The notes: generated by a model not told the origin, from the letters alone. Positions 1 to 57,267 are shown, counted from the first letter of the stretch. The stretch is 64,000 nt of DNA from an uncultured Chloroflexia bacterium (GCA_963837425.1 CAWINH010000002.1:355175-419174), one strand, 5' to 3'. Translations and numbers: made by a program.

Positions 1-239
1 GCATCGCAACCCGTCGTACGACCCTATTGAGAACCCCGACTTCCAGATCCGCACCGGCGAGATCCAGTACATCGTCTGGGACTCCTTCTCGGCGCTCCGT
101 TCAACGTTCTTCTCCGCGAGAATCCAGGACTATGCGAACCGCTACCACGGAAGGGTGGTGCACACCGAGTCGATCGTGGTGAAGACACCGAGCGCGAGCC
201 GGCGAGCATCCCGGTCATCGTCATCTACGAGGTGCGACC

Positions 240-1581
240 ATGAAGCGACTCGTGCTGGCCGCCTGCATCGGCGTCCTCTCGCTCTGGCTTCCGTCCGGGA
301 TCGTGCGGGCCGCCGGGCCGGCAACGCCGCTCGAGCACCTGGTCGTGCTCATGCAGGAGAACCACACGTTCGACAACTATTTCGGCACCTACCCCGGCGC
401 GGATGGGATACCGGCCGGGCGTCTGCATGCCGGTCGATCCGGCGGCCCCTGACGGCGAGTGCATCGCGCCGTTCCATCTCGGCGACCTGAACGTCACTCT
501 CGATGACCCGGACCACTCGAACACGACGAGCGTGCTCCAGTACGACGGGGCAAAGATGGACGGCTTCGTCTACGCCCTCGACCAGAAGAACCAGGACGGG
601 CGCCTGGCGATGATGTACTACGACGGCGGCCAGATGTACCCTACTACTGGAACCTCGCGGACCAGTACGTGCTGTTCGACCGCTGGTTCAGCTCGTTCGC
701 CGGCCCCAGCTTCACGAACCACGTGTACTGGGTGACCGGGTCGCGGACCCGACCCGAATCCCGCCATCCAGAACCTCGACGCCTTTCCCACCATCTTCGA
801 CCGGCTGGAGGCGGCCGGAGTCAGCTGGAAGTTCTACGTCGAGAACTACGAGCCGGGCCACCATCGGCCCCGCTACAGCACCCGGCCGATCGCCGGCCCA
901 GGTCGTCTGGATGCCGTTGCTCAGCTACGACCGTTTCGTCGACGATCCCCAGCTGAACAGCAAGATCGTGGACCTCGAGCAGTACTACACGACCGCCAAG
1001 GGCAGCCTCCCGGCGGTCGCCTACATCGCCCGGCCGGGGCCAGCGAGCATCCGCCGGGAAGCATCCGGTCCGGCCAGCGCCTCGTCCGCCGCTCGTCCAG
1101 GCTGATGCGGATCAGCCCGTGGGACTCCTCGGCGCCTCTGGTCACTACGACGACTGGGGAGGCTGGTACGACCACGTGACGCCCCCGCAGGTCGACGCCT
1201 ACGGGTACGGGTTCCGGGTCCCCGCCTTCCTGGTCGGCCCATACGTCCGGCGTGGGTACATCGACAGCCTCACGCTCGATTACACCTCCGCGCTGAAGTT
1301 CATCGAGGTCAACTGGGGCTCGCGCCGCTCCGGTCGCGAGCCGCAGGGCCGAAGCCTTCCTCGACGCCTTCGACTTCACGAAGCCGCCCCGGACTCCGGT
1401 GATCTTCGGGATGGAGCGGACGACCGTCAGCCTTGGGCAGGGCGCGCACCGAGAGGTGATCTACGTGGCCTATGCGATCGCCGTGCTGCTCGTCATCGGC
1501 GCCATTGCGCTCGCCGCCATGCGCCGTCGCCGGGAGTCCGAGGTCGGATGGGAGGCGTCGCAGCAGGGCCCCGCCCCATGA
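240..1581 (+). pseudogene. Phospholipase C / acid-phosphatase family phosphoesterase (PF04185-like), secreted with C-terminal TM anchor, disrupted by at least 5 frameshifts
   Basis: Consecutive ORF pieces in different frames (240, 403, 669, 911, 1119, 1399) together rebuild a single phosphoesterase. Motifs seen: LVVLMQENHTFDNYFGTYPG, GYGFRVPAFLVGPYVRRGY and the C-terminal AFLDAFDFTKPP followed by a hydrophobic anchor. It ends with an ATGA overlap into the next gene. Confidence 0.6.
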
Positions 1582-3515
1582 GGCGCACGATGCTGGCGCG
1601 CGGCGTCGTGCTCGGTTGCCTGGCGATTGCGCTCTCCGTTGCCCACGCGCGCGGCGCCGGACCGATCCGGACCACGATTGCGATTCGCCCGCCGGCGGCG
1701 GTGGCCCTCGGCGACCATCCGGAGGTGGTCGTCGACGTGCGTGTGACCGGTGGCGGCCCGTTGCGCGGAGCGCCCGTCGAGCTGAGCATCGATGGCGTTC
1801 TGTACCGGCGCCATTCGACCGATGGCTCCGGCGCCCCGCCCTTCACCCTGCCGAACGACCTGGCGGCCGGCGACCATCGGATCAGCGCCTTCTATCCCGG
1901 TCTGTCGACGACCTACCTGGCTACCTCGACGACCGCGACCCTGGTGGTGAATCCGTTCGAGCTGACGATCGAGACCGTCCCGTCGCTGCCCGGCATGCCG
2001 TTCACCCTCGACGGGGAACGCTTCGTGGCGGGCGACGACGGGGTCGCGCGGACGACGGTGAGCGCCGTCGGTGAGCACGTGCTCGTCGCCCTCCCCGAGG
2101 AGTACCAGCCGGGCGCCCTGCGTGCCGAGTTCAGCCGCTGGAGCGCCGGCAACGAGTTCCGGCCCCAGCTGACGATCAGCGTGCCGAACGTCGGCCCGCT
2201 GCAGGCCGGGTTCGACGTCTTCAGGCCCATGTCTCAGAGCTTCATCGACCTGTCGGGAGCTGCGATCGACCCGGGACGCATCACCTCGATCACCCTCCGC
2301 AGCAGCCTCGGCGAGGTGCTGACCTACCCCGACGGGCAGTCGCGCTTCTTCAAGGCCAGCCGCACGGTCCACCGCTCATCGGGGCTCGAGCCCGTCGACG
2401 TGCGGTACAACGTCACCGACGTCGAGGTCGACGGCTCGAACGTCGTGAATGCCGGTCAGCAGCAGCTCTACGTGACGCCCGATGCGGTCTGGCGCATCAC
2501 GCTCCTCCTCTATTCAGCGCGAGTCCAACCCAAGGACGCGTTCTTCGGCTTCACCGCCGGAAGCTCGATCGAGGTGATCTACCCGAGCGGGAAGACGGAG
2601 GTGGTTCCGGCTGGGCCCGATGGCGTGGTGGTGGTCCAGGGCCTGGCTCGAGGCATCTACCGGATGACGGTCGCCGACGCGCCGGGCTGGGCGCCGGCAA
2701 TGCCGGTCGCACTGTCGAGGGATCAGCAGGTCGAGCTGCGGGTCGTGAGCTGGGTCGACATGGCCGCCGCCGCGCTCGTCGGCTTCGTCGTCCTGTTCGG
2801 ACTCCTGATCCGTGGCCGACCGCACCTCATTGGCAGCACGTCGAGGCCTGTCGGCGAGGTCACGGCCGAGCCGGGAATCCCGTGGCCGGCCGGCTCCCCG
2901 CTGGCGCTGGCCCGGGCCGAGATCGAGGTGGCTCCTCCCGAACCCATCGAACCGCAGCTGGCCGAGGCGGAGCCCGTGAGCCTGACGACCGGCCGGATGC
3001 GCCCGCTGCTCGCCAGCCTGCCCGTCGAGTCGACCCTGGAAGGAGCCGCCTCCCGGCGGGTCGGCGTGAGCGAGCGGCGGAGGGGTGAGGATCAGCGCGT
3101 CTTCGGCTCGAGTGCGCTGCTCGCGTCACCGTTGCGCGGGTACGACCTCGGGGCAACCGATCGGGCCACGGCGCCGCGCGCACCGGCCACGCTCCACCGG
3201 CGACTGACATCTGCCCGCAATGGGAGGGTCCTCAAGGTCCTCTCGACGGTGCCGGTGAGGCCGGTGAACGTGGTCGACCCGGCGCTTCGAATACCCACCA
3301 CCAGGGCCGCGATCCGTCACGATCCGGCACCGACCGTGCCGCGGGTCGAATCGGCCCATCCGGCGACCTCCGAGCCAGTCTGCGAGGCGTGCGGATCGCG
3401 CCTGTGGGGCGGGGCGCTGTACTGCGAGGAGTGCGGGCGCCGGGTTCGCGAGCCGCGGCGCGTAAGCATCGGCTCGCCGGCCCGCGAGGCCGGCCCGCGA
3501 GGCTCGCCGGCATGA
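1578..3515 (+). CDS. Membrane protein, paralog 1: signal peptide, Ig-like (Big-type) beta-rich ectodomain, single TM helix, disordered cytoplasmic tail, C-terminal zinc ribbon (CEACGSRLWGGALYCEECG)
   Basis: Intact 645 aa ORF starting at the ATG at 1578. The N-terminus (MRRTMLARGVVLGCLAIALSVAHA) is hydrophobic. The ectodomain has a repeated pattern V.V.V.GGGPL.G.PVELS.DG typical of bacterial Ig-like folds. A TM helix (MAAAALVGFVVLFGLLIRGRPHL) precedes a C-terminal CxxC-(11)-CxxC. It is about 70-75% identical to the next gene across the ectodomain and TM region. Confidence 0.6.
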   Translation: MRRTMLARGVVLGCLAIALSVAHARGAGPIRTTIAIRPPAAVALGDHPEVVVDVRVTGGGPLRGAPVELSIDGVLYRRHSTDGSGAPPFTLPNDLAAGDHRISAFYPGLSTTYLATSTTATLVVNPFELTIETVPSLPGMPFTLDGERFVAGDDGVARTTVSAVGEHVLVALPEEYQPGALRAEFSRWSAGNEFRPQLTISVPNVGPLQAGFDVFRPMSQSFIDLSGAAIDPGRITSITLRSSLGEVLTYPDGQSRFFKASRTVHRSSGLEPVDVRYNVTDVEVDGSNVVNAGQQQLYVTPDAVWRITLLLYSARVQPKDAFFGFTAGSSIEVIYPSGKTEVVPAGPDGVVVVQGLARGIYRMTVADAPGWAPAMPVALSRDQQVELRVVSWVDMAAAALVGFVVLFGLLIRGRPHLIGSTSRPVGEVTAEPGIPWPAGSPLALARAEIEVAPPEPIEPQLAEAEPVSLTTGRMRPLLASLPVESTLEGAASRRVGVSERRRGEDQRVFGSSALLASPLRGYDLGATDRATAPRAPATLHRRLTSARNGRVLKVLSTVPVRPVNVVDPALRIPTTRAAIRHDPAPTVPRVESAHPATSEPVCEACGSRLWGGALYCEECGRRVREPRRVSIGSPAREAGPRGSPA

Positions 3516-6043
3516 GCCGATCGGTCGTCGGATGGGGATTCGGGCTGGCGCTGCTGGTGGCGATCCTCTCGATCGGGCAGGCCCAGGCGGCGGGTCCCCT
3601 GGCCGTGGGGGTCAGCTTCCGGCCGGTCGACCCCGTCGTCATCGGCAACGGCGCGACCGTCGTCGTTGAGCTGCGCGTGGTGGGTGGCGGGCCGCTGTCG
3701 GGGGAGCCGGTGGAGCTCAGCCTCGACGGGACGTACTACCGTCGCTCACGCACCGATGCCTCGGGCGCCGTGGCGTTCCCCCTTCCCAAGGACCTTGTGG
3801 CCGGTACTCACCCGCTGACCGCGGTCTATCCGGGACGTTCGAACACCTACCTGCCCGCGAGCGCGAAAGCGTCGCTCGAGGTTACCCCGTACCAGCTCCA
3901 GGTCCAGACCGTGCCGTCGCTTCCCGGGATGGGGTTCACCCTGGATGGGACCCGCTTCGTGGCGGGTGCCGATGGGTACGCTCGCATCCCGGTGTCGACC
4001 CCCGGCGATCATGTGCTCATCGCGCTCGACACGGAGTATGCGGCCGCCGGCACCACGGCGCAGTTCTCGCGGTGGACAGTCAACAACGAATACAGCCGCC
4101 AGGTGACGGTGAGCGTCCCGAAGGTCGGCCCGGTGCAGGCCGGATTCGACGTCTCCCGACCGGCCAGCCAGGTGTTCGTGGATCCGAGCGGGGGGCTCGT
4201 CAAAGCCGATCGCATCACGTCGTTCACCCTGCGGAGCAGCCTTGGGCAGGTGCTGACCTATCCCGACGGCCGGGAACGCGTCTACAAGGCCAGCCGCGTC
4301 GTGCGCCGCTCATCGGGCCTCGAATCGGTTGACGTCCGCTACAACGTCACCGATGTCGAGGTCGACGGTTCGAACGTTGTGAACGCCGGCCAGCAGCACT
4401 TCTACACCGCCCCCGACGCGGTCTGGCGGATCTCCCTGCTTCTCTACTCCGCGCGCATCCAGGCCAAGGATGCCCTGTTCGGTTTCACCGCCGGCAAGGC
4501 GGTGGAGATGATCTACCCGAGCGGGAAGTCGCAGATCGTCGACGTCGGGTCCAACGGCGAGGTCTACATTCCCTGGCTCGCGCGCGGGATCTACCGCGTG
4601 GCCGTGGCGGATGCCCCCGGCTGGGCCCCGTCCATGCCGGTCGCCCTCTCCCGCGACCAGGAGGTGGAACTTCGTGTCATCAGCTACCTCGACATGGGCG
4701 TCGCGGGGGCCGTGGCCCTGATCGTCATCTTCGGGCTCCTGCATCGCGGACGGCCGCACCTCATCCGCGACGCGGCGCGGGCGGTAGGTGCGGGTGTGTC
4801 CGGGCTGCGGCTGCCGCTCCCGGGAGCGGCTCACGCGCCCGCAGCCATGCGGCGGCCCGCGGAAGGGGAGCCGACGGCGAATGCCAGCCCACCACCCGTC
4901 GTCGCCAGCCCCCCACCCGTCTTGGCCAGCGCACCGAGCACTGCCACCCAGCAGCCGCAGCTCGCCCAGCAGGCAACCGAGGGCAGCGCGAAGGTCGCGC
5001 CGATCCTGGCAACGATTGCCAGGCGGTCGGACATCGACGCACTCGACCGCGTGGCTCTCGCCCACCATCGGACGATGGGCGTCAACGTTCCGGTGAGCCC
5101 CGACCTGATCGAGCTGGCGCCCTCGCTCTTCGGTCCGCAGGTCGACGAGCCCCCGCCCCCGACGAAGCCGAGGCCGACACCTCTTCCTCCGTTGCGGGCA
5201 CCCGAGAGCGCGGTCGGGGACGCAGCGCCGGCTCCGACCCCCGCAGCGCCGGCTCCGACCCCCGCAACGCCGGCTCCGGCCGAGCTCGCCGCGGAAGCGG
5301 CACCAGGCGTTGCCGATGAGTCGCTGCCATCGAAGCCCGCCCGGACCAGGCGGGCTGCAAAGCGTCCCACCACGAAGAAGGTGACGGAACCGTCGAAGGC
5401 CGTCAGGGCGAAGCGATCAACGGCCAACGCGGCACCCGCGGACGCCACGAGCGCCCCGAAGCGCGCGGCTGCGCCGAAGGCTGCCAAGACGAAGGTTCCC
5501 CGAAAGAAGGCAACCGCCACGACACCGGCGCGACGAGCGCCGGCGAAGGCCGCGAGTCGGCAGACGTCCGCATCGGCGAAGCGGACGGTCCGGAAGAAGG
5601 CGGCTCCAAGCGCTCCGCGCCGCGATTCGAGCCGGACGGTATCGGCGACTCGTGCGAGCTCGACCACGCCGGCATCCGGCACCCGGGAGACTGGCGGGAC
5701 CCGGCCGTCACGCACCCCCCGCAAGCCAGCGGCGGGGCGCTCGAGCCAGGCGGCGGTGTCGGGGGCCGCCGGGCAGCCGGTGGATGAACCGACCGAGACC
5801 CCGCCCAAGGGCGCGGAGATGCAGGCATGCCGCAACTGCGGGCTCGAGCTGTGGGCGGGCGCATCGTATTGCCGCCGCTGCGGCGAGCCGACGATTGGCG
5901 CCGGCGCCACGGACGATGCGCCGAGCGCTGGCCCACGCAGTCCGAAGCGGACGGCGACGCCTCGCGGTCGCAGTCGCCGCCGGCCGGCCACCCCCTCGGC
6001 GGGTTCCACTCGGGCCCGCGGCTCACGGCGAGGCAAGGGATGA
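3512..6043 (+). CDS. Membrane protein, paralog 2: same architecture as 1578-3515 but with a ~360 aa Lys/Ala/Pro-rich histone-H1/HU-tail-like cytoplasmic region before the C-terminal zinc ribbon (CRNCGLELWAGASYCRRCG)
   Basis: Intact 843 aa ORF whose ATG at 3512 overlaps the upstream stop (ATGA). It shows high identity to paralog 1, for example ITSFTLRSSLGQVLTYPDG and VDVRYNVTDVEVDGSNVVNAGQQ. The tail contains KRAAAPKAAKTKVPRKKATATTPARRAPAKAA-type repeats and an APAPTP tandem repeat at the DNA level (5215-5285). Confidence 0.6.
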   Translation: MSRSVVGWGFGLALLVAILSIGQAQAAGPLAVGVSFRPVDPVVIGNGATVVVELRVVGGGPLSGEPVELSLDGTYYRRSRTDASGAVAFPLPKDLVAGTHPLTAVYPGRSNTYLPASAKASLEVTPYQLQVQTVPSLPGMGFTLDGTRFVAGADGYARIPVSTPGDHVLIALDTEYAAAGTTAQFSRWTVNNEYSRQVTVSVPKVGPVQAGFDVSRPASQVFVDPSGGLVKADRITSFTLRSSLGQVLTYPDGRERVYKASRVVRRSSGLESVDVRYNVTDVEVDGSNVVNAGQQHFYTAPDAVWRISLLLYSARIQAKDALFGFTAGKAVEMIYPSGKSQIVDVGSNGEVYIPWLARGIYRVAVADAPGWAPSMPVALSRDQEVELRVISYLDMGVAGAVALIVIFGLLHRGRPHLIRDAARAVGAGVSGLRLPLPGAAHAPAAMRRPAEGEPTANASPPPVVASPPPVLASAPSTATQQPQLAQQATEGSAKVAPILATIARRSDIDALDRVALAHHRTMGVNVPVSPDLIELAPSLFGPQVDEPPPPTKPRPTPLPPLRAPESAVGDAAPAPTPAAPAPTPATPAPAELAAEAAPGVADESLPSKPARTRRAAKRPTTKKVTEPSKAVRAKRSTANAAPADATSAPKRAAAPKAAKTKVPRKKATATTPARRAPAKAASRQTSASAKRTVRKKAAPSAPRRDSSRTVSATRASSTTPASGTRETGGTRPSRTPRKPAAGRSSQAAVSGAAGQPVDEPTETPPKGAEMQACRNCGLELWAGASYCRRCGEPTIGAGATDDAPSAGPRSPKRTATPRGRSRRRPATPSAGSTRARGSRRGKG

Positions 6044-6387
6044 GGGCCGTGAAGCGTCTGACGCTGATCTGGTGCGCGGCCATTCTTGTGACGGCCGGCC
6101 TGGCGGGACCACCCCCGGCGGCTGCGGCAAGCCCCGGAGCCTCGCCGATCCCGGTCCTCGCCTATTACTACATCTGGTATGACCCATCGTCGTGGGATCG
6201 GGCCAAGTCCGACTATCCGATGCTCGGCCGCTACTCGAGCGACGATATCGAGGTCATGCGCCAGCACATTCGCTGGGCCAAGGATGCGGGGATCTCCGGA
6301 TTCATCGTCAGCTGGAAGAGCACCACGACCCTGAACCGCCGCTTGGAACAGCTGATCCAGGTCGCGGATCCGAATCGTTCGAGCTAG
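6040..6387 (+). pseudogene. Truncated secreted glycoside-hydrolase-like protein: signal peptide plus the first ~90 aa of a TIM-barrel-type domain
   Basis: ATGA overlap with the upstream gene. The sequence MRAVKRLTLIWCAAILVTAGLAG looks like a signal peptide. It is followed by YYYIWYDPSSWDRAKSDYPMLGRYSSDDIEVMRQHIRWAKDAGISGFIVSW, which resembles the N-terminus of GH99-like / GHL-type hydrolases; the family assignment is uncertain. The ORF stops after 115 aa exactly where the GC content drops. Confidence 0.35.
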
Positions 6388-8989
6388 CAATCAGTTATCC
6401 AGGGGCTGCAAAACCAACAACGGCTCCGCTCGACGCGACGCACATCGCCACAACCTCGACCAGTTCATCGGGGATTACGCCACCGATGCAGCATTCAACA
6501 TATCAGCAGGCCACTCGTCCTCTCATCAAGGACCTCGGGAGTACAGCGTCGCCGAACATGAGGAGCATCATCAATTCGACGAAGCACGACGCCTGCGGCT
6601 CCGAGCAGCGAATTCGCCCCGGCATCGTGACACTGCTTTGCAGCGACTGAAGTAACGAAGGATCACCGTTTGGCGGGCATCGTCGACGGCGATGCGTACT
6701 ACGTATTCGGTGGAACCCGACCGCGTAGCCCGAATACCCCGCCCAAGCTCGCCCGGAGTGCGAGATACAATGAAGGAACCAGCGGATCTCGATCGCCCCG
6801 GCGGGGCCGGGCTTCGATGCCGTCTGATCGGGGCACAACGGTCGTTGAATCGGAAGGACAGCGACACCCTGCGACGGGAGCTCGATGCGGCCTACGGTTC
6901 CTGGCCGGACACGGTGGGGGTCATCGAGCTCAACGGGTTCAGAAGGAACGGCGAGGTCGAGCCGAGCCTGAACTACAGCAACAACTAGCTCTGGGTCCCT
7001 CGCTGACATGATGGACAACGGGCACCAGAGGATACCCGATCTCGACTCGCCGCAGCCGACCTGGGTACCGTCTCGACGCCCGGGAACGACATGGTCGAGC
7101 CGGATCCTCACGCTCTGCCTCATCGTCGGGCTCCCCTCATCAGGAAGTAAGCATTCATCATTCACAGCAGACAAAGTAAGGCCGATTTCGGCTCGGCGTA
7201 CAGCGGCTGATCCCCGCCGAACGCGAGACAGACCGTCAAGAACAAGATAAAGAGGTGAAGGATGACGACCGCGCTGGAGGAGTCGGACTCATCCAGATTT
7301 CTTCACTAGGCGGCGGCTCCGCGCCTGCCGCTCTGCGTGAAGACGAAGCCGCGTGTTCGGCTTCACTCGCCCTCGACAGATCAGCGATAGTATCCCGACG
7401 TCGCGCTCGAGAAGATCAGCTCCTCGGCCGATGGAACAAGCTGAAACCAACCGCCCCAACGGCATCGACGATGGGGACTCAAGGTCCTGATGCACGTCGC
7501 ACATCGAACACACGAACCGCCGGATCGGGTCAAGAAGCTCGGGGGGAGTTCCGCTGGACGGATCAGGAACCAGCATCGCGCGCCGTCCAGCGCGAGCTGG
7601 CGACGACCCGACCCAGCACCCAGGCGGTGGTGATGGCGATTCGGAATGCGCACGAATACCGATCCAGATCGTGCTGCCCGGTGGCGAGGATGCGCCTCGG
7701 TGCCGCTGACCGTCGAGAGCGGGGCCGAGGCACGATGAGGGACCGTCGCGTGGCCGGGGGGTCCGGCCGGCCGGCCGTGCCGTGATCGAACAGTCGTTGC
7801 TGACCGGGGGCCTGGTCGCCGCCGGCCCCTTGCCGTCGCATTGCTCCTCGCCACCCTGCATGCCGATGACCCGGCGGACGGGCGTCGAGACCCGGGCTCC
7901 GGAGCCGGGGGAGCGGCATCATCTCGGGCCCCGCGTCGCCGAGCGCATCGCCGGTAGACCGCCGCCCGCCTCAGCGAGCCCAACCGCCTCGAGCACCGTC
8001 TCGGCTCTGCCCTCCCCACGGCACGACGCCTCCCGCCCGCCCGTCCCCAGTTAGGCACGCCCACCCGGCACAGCCCAGCCCGCCGGCCGAAGCCACAGGC
8101 CGACCACAGGCCGACGGCCGCGCTGCCGAGGCCGATCACAGCGACGTCCCGGCGCATTTTGCAATTCCGCGCCGCGTTTCTACTAGCATGGTTTCCCGAG
8201 GCATGGAAGCAGCAGGAAATGATTCCTTCCGCTCACTATCGACCATCGATCAGTTTCTGCGATCGAGAATCGAGCCGCGTGGTGAGAGAAACCCAGAGTC
8301 GCCGCGATCCGGTACCGGAAGGATCAGGTCGGATGCTCGCGTCGTCGTAGGAACACGGCAACCAGTTCAACGACGGGATGACCGAGCTCCTCAGCGCCAC
8401 GGCGCCGGACGACGTTCCGGTGGACGGTCTGCTGCGGGGGCAAGAGCCCGGGCGACCATCGGCCTCCCGGTCCACGAGCGAAGCCTGCGCGTACCTGCGC
8501 CCGATACAGCTGCGGATCAGCGCCGGGCTTCTTCCGAGTCGACGTCGGGTGGTGGACTTCATCTACGCCGACGGCGCGGACCGCTGCGGCATCCATGGAG
8601 AATCGCTCGTCAGCGGCCGACGTTGGCATCGGGGCCTACATCGTCCTCAGGTCTTTAGCGGCTTTCGCTCCTGCGGCAACCGAGCCCGCTGGCTCGCACC
8701 AGTGCAGCCCCTGCGGTCTAAATCGTTGAGCGCAGGCCAGCTCAGCTACGTCATGGCTTCCCAGGCTTTCTGGAAGGCGGACAGAGGCCACCGCGCGGCT
8801 CCCGGCGCGACGTCGCGCGATCGTCGCCGGAGCGGGCGTCGGCATGGTCGGCAGCGGACCCCGTTCCAGCTCGTCACGACGTTCAACGATGGGCGAAGGG
8901 ACGGGCGTCGAGAGCGCGACCGACTCGGCGTCGTCGTCGGGATTTCCGACAGTACCTCGACATCCTCCACCGACGCGAGTGCAGATACG

Positions 8990-10405
8990 TAGGCCGCGTC
9001 CCGGCTCAGCCTGGAGCGGGACCGTGCTGACCTGGCCGTCGGGCGTGTCACGCACCTCGATGCCCATGGCCGCCAGCTCGCCGCGGAGCGCATCCGAGGT
9101 GGCGTAGTCGCGGGCCTCCCGGGCGGCTGCGCGGCGTTCGAGGAGCTCCGCGGCGCCCCGGGCAGCTCGGTCGGCGCCGCCTCGGCCGGGGTCGAGCCCA
9201 GGCCCAGCACGCGGTCGAAGTCCAGCAGCAGCGCGCGGCGCTGGGCCGGCCGAGGTCGTCGGCGCCCGCCACGGCGTGCGCGACCGCCAGGGCGGCCGGC
9301 AGGCCCAGGTCGTCGCTGACCGCGTCGACGAAGCGGGCGCGGTAGGAGGCCAACGGCTCGGCGGCGAGGTCAACACGGCTGGCCGATCCGGCCTCGGCGG
9401 CCGCCCGACGCAGGCGCCGCAGGCCGGCGCTGGCGGCCTGCATGGCGTGTTCGGTGAAGTCGAGCTTGGACCGATAGTGGGCAGTGAGCGCCAGGTAGCG
9501 GAAGGCGAGCGGCTCGAAGCCCTTGGCGGGCAGGTCGGTGACGCGGATGATGTTCCCCGCCGACTTGGCCATCTTGGCCTCCGCCATGGTCAGGAACTCG
9601 CCGTGCATCCAGATGCTGACCACCGGATGACCCAGCACGCCCTCGCTCTGGGCGATCTCGTCCTCGTGATGGGGGAACTTGAGGTCGATCCCGCCGGTGT
9701 GGATATCGAACTGCTCGCCGAGGTACTTGACGCTCATGGCGGAGCACTCGATGTGCCAGCCCGGGAAGCCCTCGCCCCACGGCGACGCCCACTTCATGAC
9801 GCGACCCGGCTCGGCGGCCTTCCACAGCGCGAAGTCCTCCGGGTCGCGCTTGTCGGTCTCGACCTCGACGCGATGGCCGGCCCTCATCTGCTCCAGGCGC
9901 TGCCCGGACAGCTTCCCGTAGCCGGTGGGAAGGCGCTGACGTCGTAGTAGACGTTGCCCGCCACCTCGTAGGCCAGCCCGTTCTCCAGCAGGGCTGCCGT
10001 CATCTCGATCATCTCCCCGATGTGCTCGGTCGCGCGCGGCATGACGTCGGCGGGCGCCATGTTGAGCAGCCGCTCGTCGGTCAGCCAGGCATCGGTGTAG
10101 AACTCGGCGATCTGGGCCGGGGTCTTGCCCTCGACTTCGGCGGCCATCAGGATCGGGTCTTCGCCGGTCTCGCGCATGTGGCCCACGTCGGTGATGTTCT
10201 TCACGTAGCGGACCTCGTAGCCGAGGTACTCGAGACGCGCGCAGCAGGTCCCCGAACAGATAGGTCCGCAGGTTGCCGATGTGCGCGTAGCGGTAGACGG
10301 TGCTGCCGCAGGTATAGATCCCGACGCGTCCGGCGAGACGGGGACCAGCGGCTCGACCCGGCGCGTGAGCGAGTTGTAGAGGCGAATGGGAGGCAGGGGC
10401 GCCAT
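8990..10405 (-). pseudogene. cysS: Cysteine--tRNA ligase (CysRS) disrupted by at least 3 frameshifts (pseudogene of a paralog, or assembly indels)
   Basis: The N-terminus MAPLPPIRLYNSLTRRVEPL and the segment LEYLGYEVRYVKNITDVGHMRE sit in one frame. YTCGSTVYRYAHIGNLRTYLFGDLL, HIECS and the KMAKSAGN (KMSKS-like) motif sit in another frame. The C-terminus, ending ...LRGELAAMGIEVRDTPDGQVSTV, is in a third frame. The 3' end coordinate is approximate. Confidence 0.6.
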
Positions 10406-10459
10406 GGCCCGCGCATTGTACCGATGCGGCGGCGGAGCCCCCGCGAGACGGGCCGGCGC

Positions 10460-12285
10460 TCAGCTCGACTCGGCCTCGAACGTCGTCTCGCCGGCGGCCG
10501 CCTCCTCGCGCAGCTGCCGCAGCGCGCCCTGGTCGATGCCGCCGAATCGCGGCAGGTCGCGGATGCTGGCGCTGCGCGCCAGGCGCTCCTGCATCTTGCC
10601 CAGCACCAATGCCGAGAAGTCGGGCGCGGCCATCAGGTGGCGCAGGGTGTCCGCGGGGACCTCGAGCAGGATGGTCGGCTCCTGGGCCACGACATCGGCC
10701 GTCCGCGGGCTGCCGGTGAGCGCGGCGATCTCGCCGAACACATCTCCGGCCCCCATGCTCGACAGCGACCGGTACTCGCCCGAGGCGCTCGAGCCGGCCA
10801 CCGTCCGCCGAGAGGACGAAGTAGGCCGAGTTGCCGGTGTCGCCGGCGCGGGTGATGACCGTGCCGCTCTCCGCGTCCAGCACGCGGGCGCTGCTCACCA
10901 GGGCGTCGCGGTCACGCTGCGGGAGCCCGGCCAGGGCCGGGATGTAGCGCCCCAGGGCCTGCACGTCGGCCAGCGTGGCCCGGCGCCCGGTACCCACTCG
11001 CGCGGCGGTCGGGGCGGTGCGCAGCAGCTGGATGGTGCGGCGCCACTCGGCGGCCGGCTGGCCGATCCCCGGCAGCAGCGCGCCGGCCAGGGCGGTGACC
11101 ACCAGGGCCAGCGAGCTGATGAGGAACAGGGCCCGAACATCGAAGACGTCGGCGAAGCCGGCCAGGCCCATCCCGACCAGGTAGACCACGTCGCGCACCA
11201 CGTAGTTGGTGCTGAACACGCGGCCGCGCATCTCGCGCGGAGTGTTGCGCTGGGCGATGAGGCGGCCGGCCACGAAGGAGGGCGCGTTGAGGATGCCGGA
11301 GATGCCGATCAGGCTGATGGCCAGCCAGACGCTGGACGAGAGGGCGTAGGCCACGCCGGCCAGGCCCATCCCCAGGAAGCTGAGGACCAGCCAGCTGCCC
11401 TCGCGCAGCCGCTCCGCGTAGCGGGCCATCAGCAGGCTGCCGACCACGAAGCCGACCGAGGTGATGCCCTCCTGCAGGCCGTACTCGAACTCGGTGGCCT
11501 TGAGCACCTCGATGGCGAACGGCAGGAGCAGCACGTTCTGGAGGCCGAAGATGACCATGATCGGCGTGCGCAGGATGTTCATGGACGCGTAGGACCGGCG
11601 TCTTCCAGATGAACCGCGCGCCAACCGCCAGGTTGCGCACGACGTCGCCCACGGTCGTCTGCTCCTCGACCTCGAGCGGCGCAATGGTGACCAGCAGGAT
11701 CATCAGGCCGGAGAAGAGGAACGTGCCGGCATCGATGTAGAAGACGAGATCGGGCGCAATGCCGATGAGCAGGCCCGCGAGCGCGAAGCCGATGGCGGTC
11801 GACCCGAACTGGGCGATGGCCATCAACGAGTTCGCGGCGGCGAGCTCCTCGTCCGAGGCGATCTCGGGCAGCACGCTGTCGTTGGCCGGATCGAAGAACT
11901 GCTGGACCGATGCGGAGAGCAGCACGATCACGTACAGGCTGATGATGCTGTCGGTGGCGTGCAGGCTGATGGGGATGGCCGCCACCAGCCCGGCGCGCAG
12001 GATGGTGCTCACGACCATGATCGTCTTGCGGTTCCAGCGATCCACGAAGACGCCCGCGATGAGGCCGAAGAGGAGCGTGGGGGCGGCCGAGACCATGAGC
12101 ATGATCCCGACGTTGAGGATCGACCCCGTGCGCTGGAAGACGATGATGCCCGCGGCCAGCGAGGTCAGCGCGTCGCCGATGGTGGAGACCAGCTGCCCGG
12201 TCCACAGGTAGACGAAGAAGCGGTTGCGGAAGACCGCGAATGGGCCGACGGGAGCCGGGGGGGCTGATGGGGAAGCGGCAGTCAC
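10460..12285 (-). pseudogene. MFS transporter fused to a C-terminal cyclic-nucleotide-binding (cNMP) domain, carrying at least 2 frameshifts
   Basis: The 12 TM-type MFS sequence is split over two frames (10912-12285 and the 9048-11684 frame). The cNMP domain is in a third frame (10460-10801): GDVFGEIAALTGSPRTADVVAQEPTILLEVPADTL. Confidence 0.55.
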
Positions 12286-12385
12286 CGGGTTCCTCCGTGT
12301 GGTCGGCGGGCGGGCAGCCGGAGTCCGCGTGGGTCGCAGCGCATTCTGACAGCCGCGGTCGCGCGGTGCGGCCTCGCTCTACCAT

Positions 12386-12977
12386 GGGCGTCATGTCGCA
12401 CGCCGCCGAGCAGTACCCGCTGACGCTGGGCGAGGAACCAGCTTCTGCCCGGCCTGTGGCCGCCCGGTCGAGGCGCGCGTCCTGGAGCCGGACCACCGGC
12501 CGCGCCTGGTCTGCCCCGGGTCACGTCACCTGGCGGAACCCGAGGATGGTGGTCGGCACGCTCCCCATTCGTGACGGCCGGGTCTTCCTGGCGCGGCGCG
12601 CCATCGAGCCGCGCAGCGGCCGGTGGACTCACCCCGGCGGCTTCCTGGAGCTCGGCGAGGCGGCGCAGGAGGGCGCCCGTCGCGAGACGGAGGAGGAGAC
12701 GCAGCTCAAGGTCAGCGTCGGGCGCCTGATCGGCGCCTATTCGCGGCCGCGGGCCGGCGTGGTGACCATCGTCTACGAGGCGGACGTGGTGGGCGGGGAG
12801 CCGCTGCCGGGGGCGGAGACGAGCGAGGTGCAGGCTTTCGGCCCCGAGGAGATCCCGTGGGGCGAGCTGGCCTTCACAACCACCGCGTCGGCGCTGCGCG
12901 ATTGGATCGCCTCGCTGCCGGGCCACGGGCCGCGGTTCGAGCCGGAGCTGTACGTCACCGGCGACCCCGCGGACTGA
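12386..12977 (+). pseudogene. NUDIX hydrolase with an N-terminal zinc ribbon, frameshifted twice around the zinc ribbon
   Basis: The Nudix box GGFLELGEAAQEGARRETEEETQL lies in frame 0. The zinc ribbon FCPACGRPVEARVLEPDHRPRLVCPG is readable only in another frame between about 12440 and 12515. Confidence 0.5.
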
Positions 12978-13019
12978 GGCCCTGGCCGGCCTCCCGCCGT
13001 ACTCGGCCCCGTTCCCCGG

Positions 13020-13400
13020 CTCATTAGGCCCGTTGATGCATCCGCGGGGGAAGCCCGGTTCCGGCCGCGTTTCGTCCCCCTCCCCCACCCCGGCCCATAG
13101 GGGGTCCCTCAACCCGGCCCGTTCCCCGCGCTCCCCTCCCGGCCCCATATGCGGGGATCAGGCCTGCGCCAGGGGGGGTCCCGGGGGACCCCCCCCCCGC
13201 CCCCCGGCGGCCCTCCCTCCCCCGCCCCGCCCACCCGGGCCGGGCCCCGCCCCCGCGCACCCCTCCCCCCCCCCCCCGCGGGGCGGGTGGCCGGGGGGCG
13301 GGGAGCCAGCCGGGCCGGACAACGCCCCGGGCCTGGCCCGGGAAGGGGCGGGCCCTGACCAGGGCCCCGGGAGACGAAAGTCGGCGCGCGACGTCAGCCC
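13020..13400. repeat. C-rich/G-rich low-complexity block with homopolymer runs up to 13 nt and degenerate CCGGCCC-N-GGGG units; candidate G-quadruplex/i-motif tract or assembly artefact
   Basis: Direct reading of the sequence shows cccccccccc, ccccccccccccc, gggggggg and repeated ccggccc...gggg units. The block sits in the ~440 bp convergent intergenic space between the NUDIX gene and the fabF paralog. Confidence 0.5.
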
Positions 13401-13419
13401 GGATGACGCGGGTTCGCGC

Positions 13420-14670
13420 TCAGACCGGGCGGCGGAAGACGGCCACCGCGTTCTGGCCGCCGAAGCCGAAGCCGTTGATGATTGCCACCCCCACGTCCGC
13501 TCTGCGCGCCAGGTTGGGGACGTAGTCCAGGTCGCAGGCGGGGTCGGGCGTCTCGTAGTTGATCGTGGGCGGGATCAGTCCGTCGCGGATGGCCAGCACC
13601 GCGGCCAGGGCGGACATCGCGCCGGCCGCGCCCAGGGTGTGCCCGATCATGCTCTTGTTGCTGCTCACCGCCAGCCTGGGCGCGTGGTCGGCGAAGGCCG
13701 CGTGGATGGCCCTGGTCTCGGTGGCGTCATTGAGCGGGGTGCTGGTGCCGTGGGCGACCACGTAGTCCACTTCCTCCGGCTCGACGCCCGCGTCGCGCAG
13801 GGCGCGCTGCATGGCGCGGGCCGCGCCGTCACCCGGAGGGGTCGGGTGCGCTGATGTGGAACGCGTCGCCGGTCAGCGCACCGCCGGCGATCTCGGCGAT
13901 GACGGTGGCGCCGCGCGATGGGCGTGCTCGGCCGACTCGACCACCAGGATGCCGGCCGCCTCGCCGAAGACGAAGCCGTCGCGTCTGGCATCGAACGGCC
14001 GCGAGGCATGCTCCGGCTCGTCGTTGCGCTTGGAGAGGGCGCCCATGTTGGCGAGCGCGGCGAACGCCACCGGCAGGATCGCGCTCTCGGTGCCCCCGGC
14101 AACCACCGCGTCGGCGTCTCCGTGCTCGATCATGCGCTGCGCCTCCACGAACGCCTGCACCCCCGAGGCACAGGCCGCCACGCTGGTGACCACCGGGCCG
14201 CGGAGCCGGTTCTGGATGCTGATCTGGCAGGCGGCCATGGAGGGGGAGAGCATGGGCACCATGAACGGGCTGACCCGCGTCGGTCCCTGCTCGAGATAGA
14301 CGCGCTCCCCGAGGGCCACCTCGCCGATCCCGCCGCCGCCGGTGTTGACGACCACGGCGATGTCATCCCGGTTGGCGTCGCTGATCTCGAGGCCGGAATC
14401 ATCGATCGCCTGGCGGGCGGCGGCCACGGCCAGCTGGCTGAATCGGCTCATGCGGCGCGCGGCCTTGAAGTCCATCCAGTCGCGTGGCTCGAAGCCCTTC
14501 ACCTCCGCCGCGATCTGGACCTCCTCGCCGGAAGGGTCGTAGGCGGTGATGCGGGCCACGCCGCTGACGCCACCGGTCAGGTTGGACCAGTAGCTGGCCA
14601 CGTCATTGCCGATGGGGCTGATGACGCCCATGCCGGTGACGACGGCTCGACGGGCGGGGTCGCGGCTCAT
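13420..14670 (-). pseudogene. fabF: 3-oxoacyl-ACP synthase II paralog (KAS II), interrupted by two closely spaced compensating frameshifts with an internal stop
   Basis: The N-terminal 265 aa (13873-14670) and C-terminal 130 aa (13420-13812) are in the same frame. Between them, about 75 bp (13813-13915) is in the wrong frames; the correct peptide [28 protein letters not shown] is readable in a third frame. Confidence 0.6.
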
Positions 14671-14679
14671 CGGGCTGCC

Positions 14680-15963
14680 CTAGGCCTCGTAGCGGCGCAC
14701 GATGACCGTGCTGTTGTGGCCGCCCAGCCCCATCGAGTTGGAGAGGGCCACCCGCACGTCCGCGGCGCGCGCGGTGTTCGGGACGTAGTCCAGGGTGAGC
14801 TCGGGGTCGGGGTGACGGTAGTTGATGGTGGGCGGGATGCAGCCGGTCTGCACCGCCTTCACGCAGACGTAGCCCTCCAGCGCCCCGGCGGCGCCCATGA
14901 GGTGTCCGGTCATGCTCTTGGTGGAGCTCACCGCCAGCCGCTCGGCGTGCGCACCGAAGACCTCGCGAATCGCGGTCGTCTCGTAGCGGTCGTTCAGCGG
15001 CGTGCTCGTCCCGTGGGCGTTGATGTAGTCGACCGCCTCGGGACCGATGCCGGCCCGCGCCAGCGCCGCTCGCATCGCGCGCTGGTTGCCCTCCCCCCGC
15101 TCGGCCGGGGCGGCCATGTGGAACGCGTCGGCCGACGAGCCGTAGCCGATCACCTCGGCCAGCGGGGTCACGCCGCGGGCCAGGGCGTGTCCCAGCTCCT
15201 CGAGGACCAGCACCGCCGAGCCCTCCGCGATGACGAAGCCGTCGCGGGTGGCGTCGAAGGGCCGGCTGGCCTTGGTCGGATCGTACGCGCCGGTGTCCGG
15301 GTCGACGGGAGAGCCGAGCGCCTTCATCTGCTGGAACCCGGCCAGCGCCAGGGGCACCACCACGGCCTCGGCGCCCGCCCCCAGCATCAGGTCAGCCTGG
15401 CCGCGCACGATGGCCTCCATGGCTTCGCCGATGGCGTGGCCGCCGGTGGCACAGGCGCTGACCACGGCCATGTTGTGCCCGCGCAGCCCGTACTGGATGC
15501 CCACCATTCCTGACGCCGCGTCCGGGATCATGTGCGGCAGCAGGAAGGGCGAGACGCGGCCGGGGCCGCGCTCGAGGAGGGTCTGGATCCCCTCGCTCAT
15601 GATCCCGATCCCGCCGATGCCGGTGCCGAAGACGATGCCGAAGCGGTCGCCATTGGCCTGGGCCGGGTCGAGGCGCCCGTCCGCGGCCAGCAGGCCGGCC
15701 CGGCGCAGCGCCTCGCCCGCGGCGGCCACTGCGAAGTGCGTGTTGCGGTCATGCCGGCGCGCGTCCTTGGCGTCCATGTACTGGGTGGCGTCGAAGCCCT
15801 TGACCTCGCCCGCGACGTGGACCTCGAATGCCGACGTGTCGAAGAGGGTGATGTCTGCGATGCCGGAGCGGCCCGCGGTCAGGGCCTCCCAGGTCGCACC
15901 GTCCCCGATGCCGACCGGCGAGACGACCCCCACGCCGGTGACGACGGCCCGGCGGTCGCTCAC
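14680..15963 (-). CDS. fabF: 3-oxoacyl-[acyl-carrier-protein] synthase II (KAS II), intact
   Basis: KAS II motifs are present: [25 protein letters not shown] and GHLMGAAGALE. A GTG start at 15963 overlaps the fabD stop (GTGA). Confidence 0.8.
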   Translation of the reverse strand: MSDRRAVVTGVGVVSPVGIGDGATWEALTAGRSGIADITLFDTSAFEVHVAGEVKGFDATQYMDAKDARRHDRNTHFAVAAAGEALRRAGLLAADGRLDPAQANGDRFGIVFGTGIGGIGIMSEGIQTLLERGPGRVSPFLLPHMIPDAASGMVGIQYGLRGHNMAVVSACATGGHAIGEAMEAIVRGQADLMLGAGAEAVVVPLALAGFQQMKALGSPVDPDTGAYDPTKASRPFDATRDGFVIAEGSAVLVLEELGHALARGVTPLAEVIGYGSSADAFHMAAPAERGEGNQRAMRAALARAGIGPEAVDYINAHGTSTPLNDRYETTAIREVFGAHAERLAVSSTKSMTGHLMGAAGALEGYVCVKAVQTGCIPPTINYRHPDPELTLDYVPNTARAADVRVALSNSMGLGGHNSTVIVRRYEA

Positions 15964-16934
15964 GATGGGAGCCAGGCGGCGAGACCCCCGGGGGCGTCGG
16001 TGGCGTGGGCGCTGGTGTCGGGCGCGATGCGGCGGATCAGGCCGGTGAGCACCCGGCCGGGCCCCACCTCCACGAAGTCGGTGACCCCGTCGGCGGCCAT
16101 GCGGCGCACGGTGTCGGTCCACTGCACGCCGTGCACCAGGTGCTCGGTCAGCTCCTTGCGCAGCCCGTCGGCCGTCTGGATCATGCTGGCATGCACGTTC
16201 CCGAGCATGGGCACGCGCGGCTCGCGGAACGGGACCTTGGCCAGGATCTGGCCGAACTCGTCGCGAGCGCGTCGCATGAGCGGGGAGTGGCTCGCCACGC
16301 TGACGGTGAGGCGCACCGCCTTGCGGGCGCCAATGGTCTTGCTCATCTCGAGCGCGAAGACGAGGGCAGGGATGACGCCGGAGAGCACGATCTGTCCCGG
16401 CGCGTTGGCATTCGCGACCCCGATCTCGCCGTGCTGCCGCGCGTGCTCGACGACCTCGTCAACCTGTTCGTCGGAGAGGCCGATGACGGCCCCCATGCCG
16501 CCGTCGATGCCGCGCTCCTGCATGATCCGTCCCCGCTCCCGGACCAGGTGCAGCGCCTCCTCGAAGTCGATGGCATCGGCGGCAACCGCAGCGGCGTACT
16601 GGCCTGCCGAGTGGCCGGCCAGGACCCGGGGAGCCAGCTCCAGGCCGGCGGCGGCTGCCTGGGCGCGCAGCGCCTCGAGATAGGCGACGCTGGTGGCCAG
16701 GATGGCGGGCTGGGCGTTGACCGTGAGGTCCAGGTCCTCGGCCGGTCCCTCGAGGATCATCCGGGTCAGCGGAAAGCCCAGCGCCCGATCCGCGCGCTCC
16801 ATCACCGCGGCCGCCTCCGGCGAGTGCTCGAGCAGGGCGGCGCCCATCCCCACGTACTGCGAGCCCTGGCCGGGAAAGACAAAGGCATGCACGCGGGGGG
16901 GTGCGATGGACTGCGGGTCGGGTGGGTTCGTCAT
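15960..16934 (-). CDS. fabD: Malonyl-CoA:ACP transacylase
   Basis: FVFPGQGSQYVGMG and GHSAGQYAA motifs are present. The ATG overlaps the stop of the upstream M20 gene (ATGA). Confidence 0.8.
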   Translation of the reverse strand: MTNPPDPQSIAPPRVHAFVFPGQGSQYVGMGAALLEHSPEAAAVMERADRALGFPLTRMILEGPAEDLDLTVNAQPAILATSVAYLEALRAQAAAAGLELAPRVLAGHSAGQYAAAVAADAIDFEEALHLVRERGRIMQERGIDGGMGAVIGLSDEQVDEVVEHARQHGEIGVANANAPGQIVLSGVIPALVFALEMSKTIGARKAVRLTVSVASHSPLMRRARDEFGQILAKVPFREPRVPMLGNVHASMIQTADGLRKELTEHLVHGVQWTDTVRRMAADGVTDFVEVGPGRVLTGLIRRIAPDTSAHATDAPGGLAAWLPS

Positions 16935-29703: not shown

Positions 29704-30759
29704 TGCCAACCCCCAAGCCGGGGCAGATCCGCTGCCCGACCTGTTCGCGCTCGACCCCGCCGGCGGCCTACTGCACGCAGTGCGGGTCGCCCATTCCGGT
29801 CTCGGTTCGCGCCAGACCGCGCGGTCTGGACCGCGAGGAGCTGGAGGAGCGCGTCCGCGGCCGGCGGCCGGAAGAGGCGCCGTTTCGGCGCGGCACCGAG
29901 CCGGACCCCTCCGACGTCTACCAGCCGTTCACGCCCGAGCCGGAGGACGCGCTCGCGGTTCGTGAGACGGAGGGCTCCGAGCCCGAGCCGCCGCGCGTCG
30001 ACAACGCGCCGCCGGACCTGTACGAGAGTCCTCCGGCCGCGGTCGGCGCTCCCCCCGCATGAGCAGGCTCCATCGGTCGAGGCCTGGGGTCCCGCCGATG
30101 CCGGAGGCGGCGAGGAGCCTCCCTATGCGGAGCCTCCATACGCCTCCCCGTACCTTCCCGAGGACCCGGGACGGCGCGATTCGGGCGCGCTCCCACTGCT
30201 CGGGTTCGCGGCCCTGGCCGTGATGGCGCTCGCGGTCGGCGTGATCCTGGCCGGGCTCTTCAGCCCGAGCGGGACGGCGGAGGCGTCTCCGACCCCCACC
30301 CTGGCCCCGACGGCGGCACCGACCCAGACCGCCGCCGCATCGGTGGCCCCGGAGTCGGTCGCGCCCGTGGAATCGTCAACGCCCGAACCCACCGATGGGC
30401 CGGTCACCTTCCCGGATGGCGCGATGCTGACCGTCCAGCCGTGCGGGACGTACGAGTTCCAGGATGACCTGAGCGGGTGCCTGGTCGACGGCTCGGTCCG
30501 CGACACCGGCACCGTGTGGGTTCTCGCCACGTTCAAGCGCGCCAACGGCAACGACCAGCTGTCGGTCGATTCTCCAGTCGAACGCAGACACGCTGGACCG
30601 GGTCGACCTGGCCATCGGGCAGGTCCTCCCCGACTGCTCCAATACGTGCAGCGGGCTCGTCTGGGTACGAACCTGGAAGGACCTCCAGCCGGGTACCTAC
30701 CACCTCGTCCTGCGCCGAAACGGCGGCTTCGCGGACAGCGCCGACTTCGTCGTCCAGTA
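29704..30759 (+). pseudogene. N-terminal zinc-ribbon, Pro-rich linker, TM helix and extracellular domain protein, with 2 frameshifts
   Basis: CPTCSRSTPPAAYCTQCGSP at the N-terminus. After a shift near 30040 comes the TM helix LLGFAALAVMALAVGVILAGLF and an ectodomain. After another shift near 30570 the C-terminus reads ...YHLVLRRNGGFADSADFVVQ. Confidence 0.4.
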
Positions 30760-57191: not shown

Positions 57192-57267
57192 TGGTGGAGC
57201 TGGGGGGACTCGAACCCCCGACCCCCTGCATGCCATGCAGGTGCTCTCCCAGCTGAGCTACAACCCC
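57192..57267 (-). tRNA. tRNA-Ala (anticodon GGC), CCA-encoded, G3:U70 identity pair
   Basis: The reverse complement reads GGGGTTGTAGCTCAGCTGGGAGAGCACCTGCATGGCATGCAGGGGGTCGGGGGTTCGAGTCCCCCCAGCTCCACCA. This folds into a canonical cloverleaf with anticodon loop ATGGCAT. Confidence 0.85.

Follow-up and report, generated by a model that had tools for sequence, protein, structure and literature searches.

What is the role of two adjacent genes that each encode a membrane protein with a chain of immunoglobulin (Ig)-like domains and a predicted zinc ribbon? This question is raised by a stretch of 64,000 nucleotides from an uncultured Chloroflexia bacterium (GCA_963837425.1, CAWINH010000002.1:355175-419174), referred to here as the window. 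Gene 1 (X1, positions 1578-3515) and gene 2 (X2, positions 3512-6043) lie on the plus strand, as do all parts of the pair and its cassette described below, and are open reading frames (ORFs) of 645 and 843 amino acids. Both belong to a family, here called family X, for which neither a Pfam nor an NCBIfam model exists, and no description of the family or of its gene cassette was found in the literature. An earlier note on this DNA had described the pair; the qualitative elements of that description are real and the pair is genuine. Among the features of family X the zinc ribbon is the least widespread, and most can be learned from the conserved cassette. On balance we favour, with moderate confidence, the reading that X would be a non-catalytic ectodomain subunit, acting as scaffold or holder, of a machine for surface mannosylation and trimming.

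The gene cassette around family X

That X is a member of a fixed cassette is close to certain. The order of genes, all on the same strand, is a GT2-GtrA protein, a GT-C of the PMT/PMT_2 type, a PF04185 phosphoesterase, X and a GH99/GH71-like hydrolase. All six relatives that were looked up, and the twin locus on contig L001, agree in order and strand; the GT2 and GtrA_DPMS_TM parts are fused in some loci and encoded by two genes in others. The counts were extended to 39 species-representative loci, all of them from metagenome-assembled genomes, which were found with a 22-sequence alignment and scored wherever the flank was long enough. Upstream of X, the GT-C is present in 30 of 33 loci and GT2-GtrA in 30 of 31. 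The co-occurrence of X with the phosphoesterase and the glycosidase, suggested for checking in the earlier note, is strongly borne out and provides the main clue: the phosphoesterase gene lies directly upstream in 33 of 36 loci and GH99 downstream in 29 of 35, and in two of the GH99 exceptions the gene merely lies on the other side of X. In addition, X and GH99 occur fused in one polypeptide, in which X and its transmembrane (TM) helix are followed by a short loop, a second hydrophobic segment and the GH99 domain (P0064, P0113 and P0183; the second segment is weak in P0030). P0061, which stands outside the scored set, is apparently built in the same way. These fusions are Rosetta-stone evidence for a functional link.

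X is translationally coupled to its neighbours in the cassette. The window starts inside the GT-C gene, the 3′ end of which covers positions 1-243 (mapped from the intact gene at 5138-6721 of L001), and the phosphoesterase follows at 240-1581. ATGA start/stop overlaps connect the phosphoesterase to X1 (at 1578), X1 to X2 (at 3512) and X2 to the GH99/GH71-like gene (at 6040), which extends to 7250. Both the phosphoesterase and the GH99-like protein share the build of X, with a signal peptide, an ectodomain and a C-terminal TM anchor, and point to the outside of the membrane as the ectodomain of X does. In the window the phosphoesterase carries several frameshifts, its three-frame translation hopping between frames, and the GH99-like gene is frameshifted after about 110 codons; in L001 both are intact (450 and 399 amino acids).

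The neighbours point to the handling of a lipid-linked sugar. Among solved structures the GT2-GtrA protein matches the Pyrococcus furiosus DPMS (5MLZ, E 1.4e-56, residues 23-382) and includes the GtrA_DPMS_TM domain, so that it may be classed as a synthase of the polyprenyl-phosphate-mannose type, with mannose as the most likely sugar. The GT-C, a candidate protein O-mannosyltransferase of family GT39, scores above the cut-off with both PMT_2 (84.1 bits) and PMT (33.5 bits). For the phosphoesterase the closest solved structures are Francisella AcpA (2D1G, E 9e-37) and phospholipase C. The hydrolase reaches 55.2 bits with PF16317 (cut-off 33) and aligns with the Bacteroides endo-alpha-mannosidases 4AD1 and 5LYR (E 1e-10), where the segment 'swnefsensevep' lies opposite 'sfnewhegsqiep'. 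The NE..E motif is kept in this alignment (WNEFSEN opposite FNEWHEG), and its glutamates are those which we take to be the catalytic pair of GH99 (BxGH99). At one locus ManC, a GDP-mannose enzyme, is encoded immediately downstream of the cassette.

A comparable pairing is known from protein O-mannosylation in actinobacteria, in which a polyprenyl-phosphate-mannose synthase (Ppm1) supplies a PMT-family GT-C acting outside the membrane (Pmt; PMC5882110, PMC11727336). The cassette likewise combines a GT2 synthase with a GT-C that matches the PMT-type models. However, it adds X, the AcpA/phospholipase-C-like phosphoesterase and the GH99-like hydrolase as fixed partners, which are unreported in the actinobacterial system, and its GT-C fits PMT_2 far better than PMT (84 versus 33.5 bits).

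Further observations were made around the cassettes. The GtrA-domain protein of the cassette, encoded at 3464-5065 of L001 (before the point at which the window starts) and also in L002 and L003, ends in a domain of about 400 amino acids. This domain contains the P-loop-like motif QTDTGKTS, resembles HprK-related kinase A weakly and ScmC only faintly, and would be a cytoplasmic one on a lipid-sugar synthase or flippase component. Extra secreted enzymes with Metallophos, Big_7 and CBM96 domains were seen around the cassettes of L005 (1-4259 and 12513-18398), L046 (4060-8085) and the contig of P0063, together with NosD/beta-helix proteins and additional copies of the phosphoesterase and GH99, which suggests a larger neighbourhood for the synthesis or turnover of phospho-glycans at these loci. 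A ketoacyl-synthase pair and an acyltransferase lie a few kb downstream of the cassette (window 13419-16000, minus strand; L001 19396-22532), a position which is conserved in L002 and L003.

Distribution and ectodomain of the family

A word-indexed search retrieved 65 relatives of X. With E<=1e-30 as the limit, an exhaustive profile search in 1.84 billion representatives gave 1,695 clusters (counted at 50% identity); the limit E<=1e-10 gave 7,754, the weaker of which include unrelated proteins that contain Ig repeats. Of the 150 best profile matches, most cover the entire ectodomain and the TM helix. Among species-representative genomes, the carriers belong to the Chloroflexota (Chloroflexia, Anaerolineae, Caldilineaceae, Thermomicrobiales) and to the Thermoleophilia within the Actinomycetota (Gaiella, Solirubrobacterales, Thermoleophilaceae), with isolated cases in single metagenome-assembled genomes (MAGs) of Trueperaceae and Thermoanaerobaculia. 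Where their sources name the members at all, they are called 'hypothetical protein' or bear an automatic label. X is a large family (about 1,700 clusters) that stands unmodelled in the databases; within the cassette it is a fixed and non-enzymatic component. Little is understood of the cell envelopes of Chloroflexota and Thermoleophilia, both of them abundant in soil, and a five-gene cassette defined across both groups offers a concrete and testable handle on a surface glycan pathway.

Models of both proteins were computed by AlphaFold2 with family alignments and contain 380 (gene 1) and 341 (gene 2) residues with a predicted local distance difference test score (pLDDT) of at least 90. The layout is the same in both. 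A signal-peptide helix comes first, followed by four beta-sandwich domains (D1 at residues ~28-126, D2 at 127-206, D3 at 207-311, D4 at 312-391) and the TM helix (residues 392-413), beyond which a disordered tail (pLDDT <50) carries a small ribbon (pLDDT 86-90). In gene 1 the signal peptide is encoded at 1578-1649 (residues 1-24, predicted cleavage between AHA and RG, model helix 2-21), the ectodomain at 1650-2750 (D1-D4, pLDDT 91-98) and the TM helix at 2751-2816. The corresponding parts of gene 2 are located at 3512-3589 (residues 1-26, predicted cleavage between AQA and AG, model helix 4-19), 3590-4684 (four beta-sandwich domains as in gene 1, pLDDT 85-98 by block of ten residues) and 4685-4750. 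Cleavage sites were read by the -3/-1 rule. A signal peptide, a beta-rich Ig-like ectodomain and one TM helix had been proposed before, and the AxA sites, the modelled beta-sandwiches and the helix at 392-413 agree with this; the ectodomain, put at about 480 amino acids in the earlier note, measures about 365 (residues ~25-391).

Searches with single sequences and with a 64-sequence profile in Pfam, NCBIfam and solved structures returned nothing above threshold and only weak Ig-like and zinc-ribbon matches, which upholds the view that no named family covers the protein. The best domain match is Big_3_5 (PF16640) on D1, with 27.0 bits in gene 1 (residues 39-125) and 29.5 bits in gene 2 (residues 45-125), below the gathering threshold of 35.5. 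The ectodomains do have the Ig-like beta-sandwich fold of Big_3_5, and in some relatives the match is much stronger (best E 4.8e-22). Matches to the C1 domain of protein kinase C were rejected as noise from the cysteine pattern.

Conservation climbs towards the membrane, from 0.39 in D1 and 0.46 in D2 to 0.59 in D3, 0.56 in D4 and 0.55 in the TM helix. The residues D394, L409 and R414 flanking the TM helix are invariant or nearly so; D394 stands at the outer end of the helix, and a conserved GRP motif at its inner end. The ectodomain models consist of beta-sandwiches only, and their structural matches include no enzyme-like fold. In Foldseek the ectodomain of gene 1 has generic matches of the Ig type, and the top matches are surface stalk proteins of Gram-positive bacteria, namely the Bacillus anthracis TIE protein 6FWV (E 6.5e-16) and the pilins BcpA and RrgB (E values up to 3.3e-05), with low TM-scores of 0.12-0.23.

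These matches raise an alternative in which X is the product or target of the cassette, i.e. a membrane-anchored stalk or adhesin-like glycoprotein that is mannosylated by the PMT-type transferase and trimmed by GH99. It would agree with the best structural matches, with the X gene adjoining a gene of a PMT-family transferase, and with D1 and D2 being the most variable domains, as exposed surfaces would be. X and the stalk proteins with tandem Ig-like or CnaB domains are also alike in being chains of beta-sandwiches. However, X depends for its anchoring on a TM helix, which continues into a cytoplasmic tail, and not on sortase: the sorting motif LPx[TSA]G is absent from both proteins, where a stalk of this kind would carry an LPXTG motif. 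Pfam detects no thioester, isopeptide- or ester-bond domain in either protein. Bacterial O-mannosylation usually targets disordered linkers, whereas the ectodomain of X is compact and its models contain no disordered linker between the domains. The peak of conservation in the membrane-proximal domains and the TM helix fits docking better than display, and a fusion to GH99 suits a partner better than a substrate. We therefore consider it quite unlikely that X is a substrate.

Docking is what the favoured reading assumes. GT2-GtrA would make a polyprenyl-phosphate sugar, most likely mannose, and the PMT_2-type GT-C would use this lipid-linked donor on the outside of the membrane. D3, D4 and the TM helix of X could dock onto the membrane enzymes, and the variable outer domains D1 and D2 may hold or position the glycan or the acceptor. 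Closest in working principle are the type-I subunits of the eukaryotic oligosaccharyltransferase (ribophorin I/Ost1, OST48/Wbp1, Swp1), by analogy and not by homology. These subunits have a signal peptide, lumenal beta-sandwiches, a single C-terminal TM helix and short tails, and their GT-C partner uses a polyprenyl-phosphate-linked sugar. X shares with them the signal peptide, the beta-sandwiches, the C-terminal TM helix and an association with a GT-C, which in this case is one of gene order. It differs in that neither sequence similarity nor a specific fold match to them was found, and in having a ribbon or a long, basic, disordered tail where the eukaryotic subunits have short ones. X may be a bacterial counterpart of the eukaryotic accessory subunits of GT-C enzymes.

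Several points weigh against this proposal. The putative link between X and the machine is drawn from gene order and fusions, and the role as scaffold or holder is reached by exclusion, because the fold of the ectodomain is generic. The part which the phosphoesterase would play in such a pathway is left unexplained, and both sugar and acceptor are putative. By sequence, no solved structure matches the GT-C. None of the four neighbours reaches the equivalog cut-offs of NCBIfam, so none of them is a named orthologue. The integrity of the operon in this genome is uncertain, since frameshifts interrupt the phosphoesterase and GH99 genes of the window. Finally, all matches of the ribbon to Pfam models remain below threshold, and zinc binding is predicted.

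Membrane topology and the cytoplasmic tail

A type-I topology, with the N-terminus outside and the C-terminus with the ribbon in the cytoplasm, is supported by hydropathy, AxA sites, charge distribution, the models and a comparison of relatives. An acidic residue precedes the TM helix and the sequence RGRPHLI follows it. The comparison makes use of relatives with an appended extracellular domain: a second hydrophobic segment precedes this domain in seven of seven relatives with PG_binding_1 and in three of four GH99 fusions, whereas none of the members with a ribbon, helix-turn-helix (HTH) or helix-hairpin-helix (HhH) tail contains one. The ribbon is therefore placed inside the cell, as had been presumed, on account of the Sec signal peptides, the basic residues after the TM helix and the comparison of second segments, the last being the stronger evidence.

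The earlier note had regarded a ribbon at the C-terminus as an inverted arrangement, in view of the gene at 29704 of the window. In the protein encoded there the ribbon (MPTPKPGQIRCPTCSRSTPPAAYCTQCG...) comes before the TM helix; it is of type II, with an N-terminal and equally cytoplasmic ribbon. The C-terminal ribbon of X is nothing special but follows simply from its type-I topology, as the N-terminal ribbon at 29704 does from type II. As an observation on this gene itself (29704-30300, plus strand), a disordered linker rich in P and E lies between its N-terminal zinc ribbon (CPTC-x9-CTQC) and the TM helix; ribbon type and layout resemble X in type-II orientation. Its TM helix is in a different reading frame, probably through another indel.

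The tail of gene 1 consists of a disordered R/A/P-rich part (2817-3380, pLDDT <50) and the predicted zinc ribbon CEACGSRLWGGALYCEEC (3381-3434, residues 602-619, pLDDT ~90, weak DZR matches). Including the ribbon, its post-TM tail is nearly neutral, with a net charge of about +7. In gene 2, a neutral A/P-rich disordered spacer (4751-5311, residues 414-600) is followed by a strongly basic, disordered segment rich in A/R/T/P/S/K (5312-5827, net +30 over residues 601-770), the predicted zinc ribbon CRNCGLELWAGASYCRRC (5828-5881, residues 773-790, pLDDT 86-89) and a basic C-terminal extension (5882-6040, net +12 over residues 811-843). Each ribbon contains two CxxC knuckles, CEAC-x10-CEEC in gene 1 and CRNC-x10-CRRC in gene 2, and neither mature protein has any cysteine besides these four. 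The spacing is thus one residue shorter than the CxxC-(11)-CxxC reported earlier, and the proteins do not end in the ribbon, since 26 (gene 1) and 53 (gene 2) residues lie beyond it. With the Pfam models Zn_Ribbon_1 (PF13240), DZR (PF12773) and DZR_2 (PF18912) scores of 13.3-16.3 bits were obtained, compared to cut-offs of 25-27.3. The ribbon resembles the modules PF13240 and PF12773 in its two CxxC knuckles about ten residues apart and in its cytoplasmic position, connected by a disordered linker to a single TM helix; it differs in the C-terminal location, the sub-threshold scores and a tight clade consensus of its own.

This consensus, CxxCG..(L)W.GA.(F/Y)CRRCG, was derived from 24 proteins of the clade nearest to the window, which have the x10 ribbon always at 15-61 residues from the C-terminus; gene 1 has CEEC where the clade has CRRC. 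Tails of this clade carry a net charge of +5 to +64, most of them at least +19, with gene 1 and its orthologue at +7 to +11. Identity among the orthologues of gene 2 amounts to 74-76% in the ectodomain and 78-83% in the ribbon, compared to 24-47% with many indels for the tail in between, which marks the ribbon as a constrained island in a linker that conserves only its composition. In the basic segment itself composition is kept at 24-31% sequence identity, again with many indels.

The x10 ribbon is confined to this one clade. In the 181 collected sequences that cover the core profile to its end, the tail after the TM helix has at most 40 residues in 71, 41-100 in 17, 101-300 in 51 and more than 300 in 42, and hence about 40% of the sampled members are almost tail-less. 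Far from being a conserved feature of the family, the zinc ribbon is missing from most sampled members and is shown to be an optional, clade-specific cytoplasmic add-on. Other tails take its place: an InsA-/IS1595-type zinc ribbon with HTH_23/28/29/32 in at least eight clusters (E down to 6.5e-12; members include P0091, P0097, P0184, P0194, P0167, P0128 and P0119), ComEA-type HhH domains in P0060 and P0063 (E 1e-20), and PG_binding_1 or GH99 domains placed behind a second TM helix. Neither HTH nor HhH was detected in gene 1 or gene 2 by Pfam or NCBIfam.

P0091, with its zinc ribbon and HTH, belongs to a cassette that is intact (the GH99 gene lies 60 bp downstream) and has no transposase core, which rules out an insertion sequence (IS) artefact, and the tail is taken as genuine. 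The tail of P0106 (763 amino acids) differs from the compact tails with zinc ribbon and HTH: it contains an rve integrase core (residues 572-727), probably because an IS element has become fused to X at its 3′ end or was wrongly joined there. The JGI label 'HU-beta' of P0008 is unsupported by any model, since NCBIfam gave no match for six long-tailed orthologues; it probably reflects basic low-complexity sequence.

Modules of the DNA-binding type in the same position lend some comparative support to the signalling or nucleoid-tethering role that had been suggested for the pair, and allow another reading of X as a membrane-tethered sensor or regulator. In such a protein the ectodomain would read the surface glycan and the tail would attach to DNA through its ribbon and basic region, and so control transcription or anchor the chromosome, in the manner of ToxR or CadC in the opposite orientation. 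Zinc ribbon plus HTH and HhH modules follow the TM helix in relatives at the same cassette position and without a second TM segment, P0091 carries its HTH in an intact cassette and hence not by IS insertion, and the tail of gene 2 has a net charge of +30 over 170 residues. An exchange of zinc ribbon and HTH has also been described for single-TM partners of membrane lipid systems (PMC12419801, section 26), which speaks for this explanation. On the other hand, since about 40% of the sampled members are almost tail-less, DNA binding cannot be required for the core function. HTH and HhH are both missing from gene 1 and gene 2, a lone four-cysteine ribbon is not diagnostic of DNA binding, and the tail of gene 1 is nearly neutral. 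The rve core of P0106 indicates that some of the 'fusions' may be IS-related artefacts. ToxR, CadC and RodZ are bitopic proteins with an N-terminal cytoplasmic domain, one TM helix and an extracytoplasmic domain. X has the single TM helix and the extracytoplasmic domain as well and, in its relatives, modules of the nucleic-acid-binding type (HTH, zinc ribbon plus HTH, HhH). However, gene 1 and gene 2 show the reversed order of signal peptide, ectodomain, TM helix and tail, and a ribbon without HTH, so that neither property defining ToxR and CadC was found. Moreover, a cytoplasmic HTH of a bitopic protein can bind protein instead of DNA, as RodZ does with MreB. Altogether a regulator appears unlikely.

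In a related proposal, X might be a one-component coupler of reversed topology (N-out, C-in) between the mannosylation machine and the chromosome, its ectodomain reporting on glycan assembly and its swappable modules (basic disordered region with zinc ribbon, zinc ribbon plus HTH, or HhH) binding DNA, for regulation of the cassette or for tethering the nucleoid at sites of envelope synthesis. We would assign a fairly low probability to it.

The tail might also be a handle for localisation or turnover, with the ribbon binding a cytoplasmic protein such as a cytoskeletal or divisome component or a protease adaptor, and without any role in nucleic acid binding. A small conserved ribbon on a long flexible linker has the geometry of a tethered protein-binding module, and the similar ribbon at the cytoplasmic N-terminus of the unrelated membrane protein at 29704 would suggest a common cytoplasmic partner of bitopic proteins. 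However, no conserved candidate gene for such a partner lies near the cassette in the loci looked up, what relatives carry in place of the ribbon are modules of the DNA-binding type, and the extreme positive charge of the linker would be left unexplained. A pure handle function is thus very unlikely in our opinion.

In the scaffold reading favoured here, the tail would couple the machine either to a cytoplasmic polyanion, e.g. nucleic acid, or to a partner protein, to judge from its charge and the modules of the relatives. The repeated occurrence of nucleic-acid-binding-type modules at the cytoplasmic end of X hints at a possible direct coupling between glycosylation of the envelope and the cytoplasm.

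The tandem pair and the sequence of the window

The presence of two adjacent intact paralogous genes was confirmed by the same-strand ORFs and by BLASTP (E=0). The alignment comprises residues 1-448 (signal peptide, ectodomain and TM helix) with 60% identity (269/448), and the ribbon region forms a separate alignment of 42%. An identity of 70-75% had been claimed for the whole shared part; it holds for D3 (75%) and D4 (70%) only, the other regions having 54% (D1), 59% (D2), 59% (TM helix), 20% (tail) and 46% (ribbon). For gene 1, an alternative start at 1590 (641 amino acids) was chosen by another gene caller.

Two copies of X exist in the lineage of the window only, all other loci having a single one. 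A neighbour-joining tree built from the core region places gene 2 with the single-copy proteins P0003, P0005, P0006 and P0008 of related MAGs (74-76% identity), and gene 1 together with P0002 in a divergent sister branch (58-64% identity). By this grouping gene 2 corresponds, as the conserved orthologue, to the gene that related genomes have singly; gene 1 is the extra copy, with a tail that is shorter and less basic. Under the proposed scaffold role gene 2 would have retained the ancestral basic tail, and the diverged gene 1 might, speculatively, pair with it.

The pair is no assembly artefact. The tandem X1-X2 is also found on the independent ENA contig L001, and a JGI contig of 17,165 bp carries a gene 99% identical to gene 1 along with one that belongs to the 90% cluster of gene 2. 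Gene 2 is identical to the database protein P0004, and orthologues of gene 1 are P0001 (99% identical) and P0002 (89%).

A comparison of positions 1-16000 with L001 revealed 100% identity only across 1500-6250, which comprises exactly the two X genes; on either side, 10-18% substitutions and up to 8% indel columns were counted. In addition to the phosphoesterase (240-1581) and the first GH99 gene (GH99a, 6040-7250), GerE (7431-7738), a second GH99 gene (GH99b, 7918-8988) and the essential cysS (9006-10405) are frameshifted in the window and intact in L001. The stretch 6001-8000 with its low G+C content (64.5%) coincides with the part richest in indels. Related MAGs stem from the Nanopore-based Microflora Danica project (PMC12313526), which makes strain collapse or consensus error likely. 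The flanking frameshifts are probably assembly problems, and the X1-X2 block could have been exchanged recently between strains.

Rfam and tRNA scans found nothing within or near gene 1 and gene 2; the only match of Rfam and ARAGORN in the 64-kb window is a tRNA-Ala (GGC) at 57192-57267 on the minus strand.

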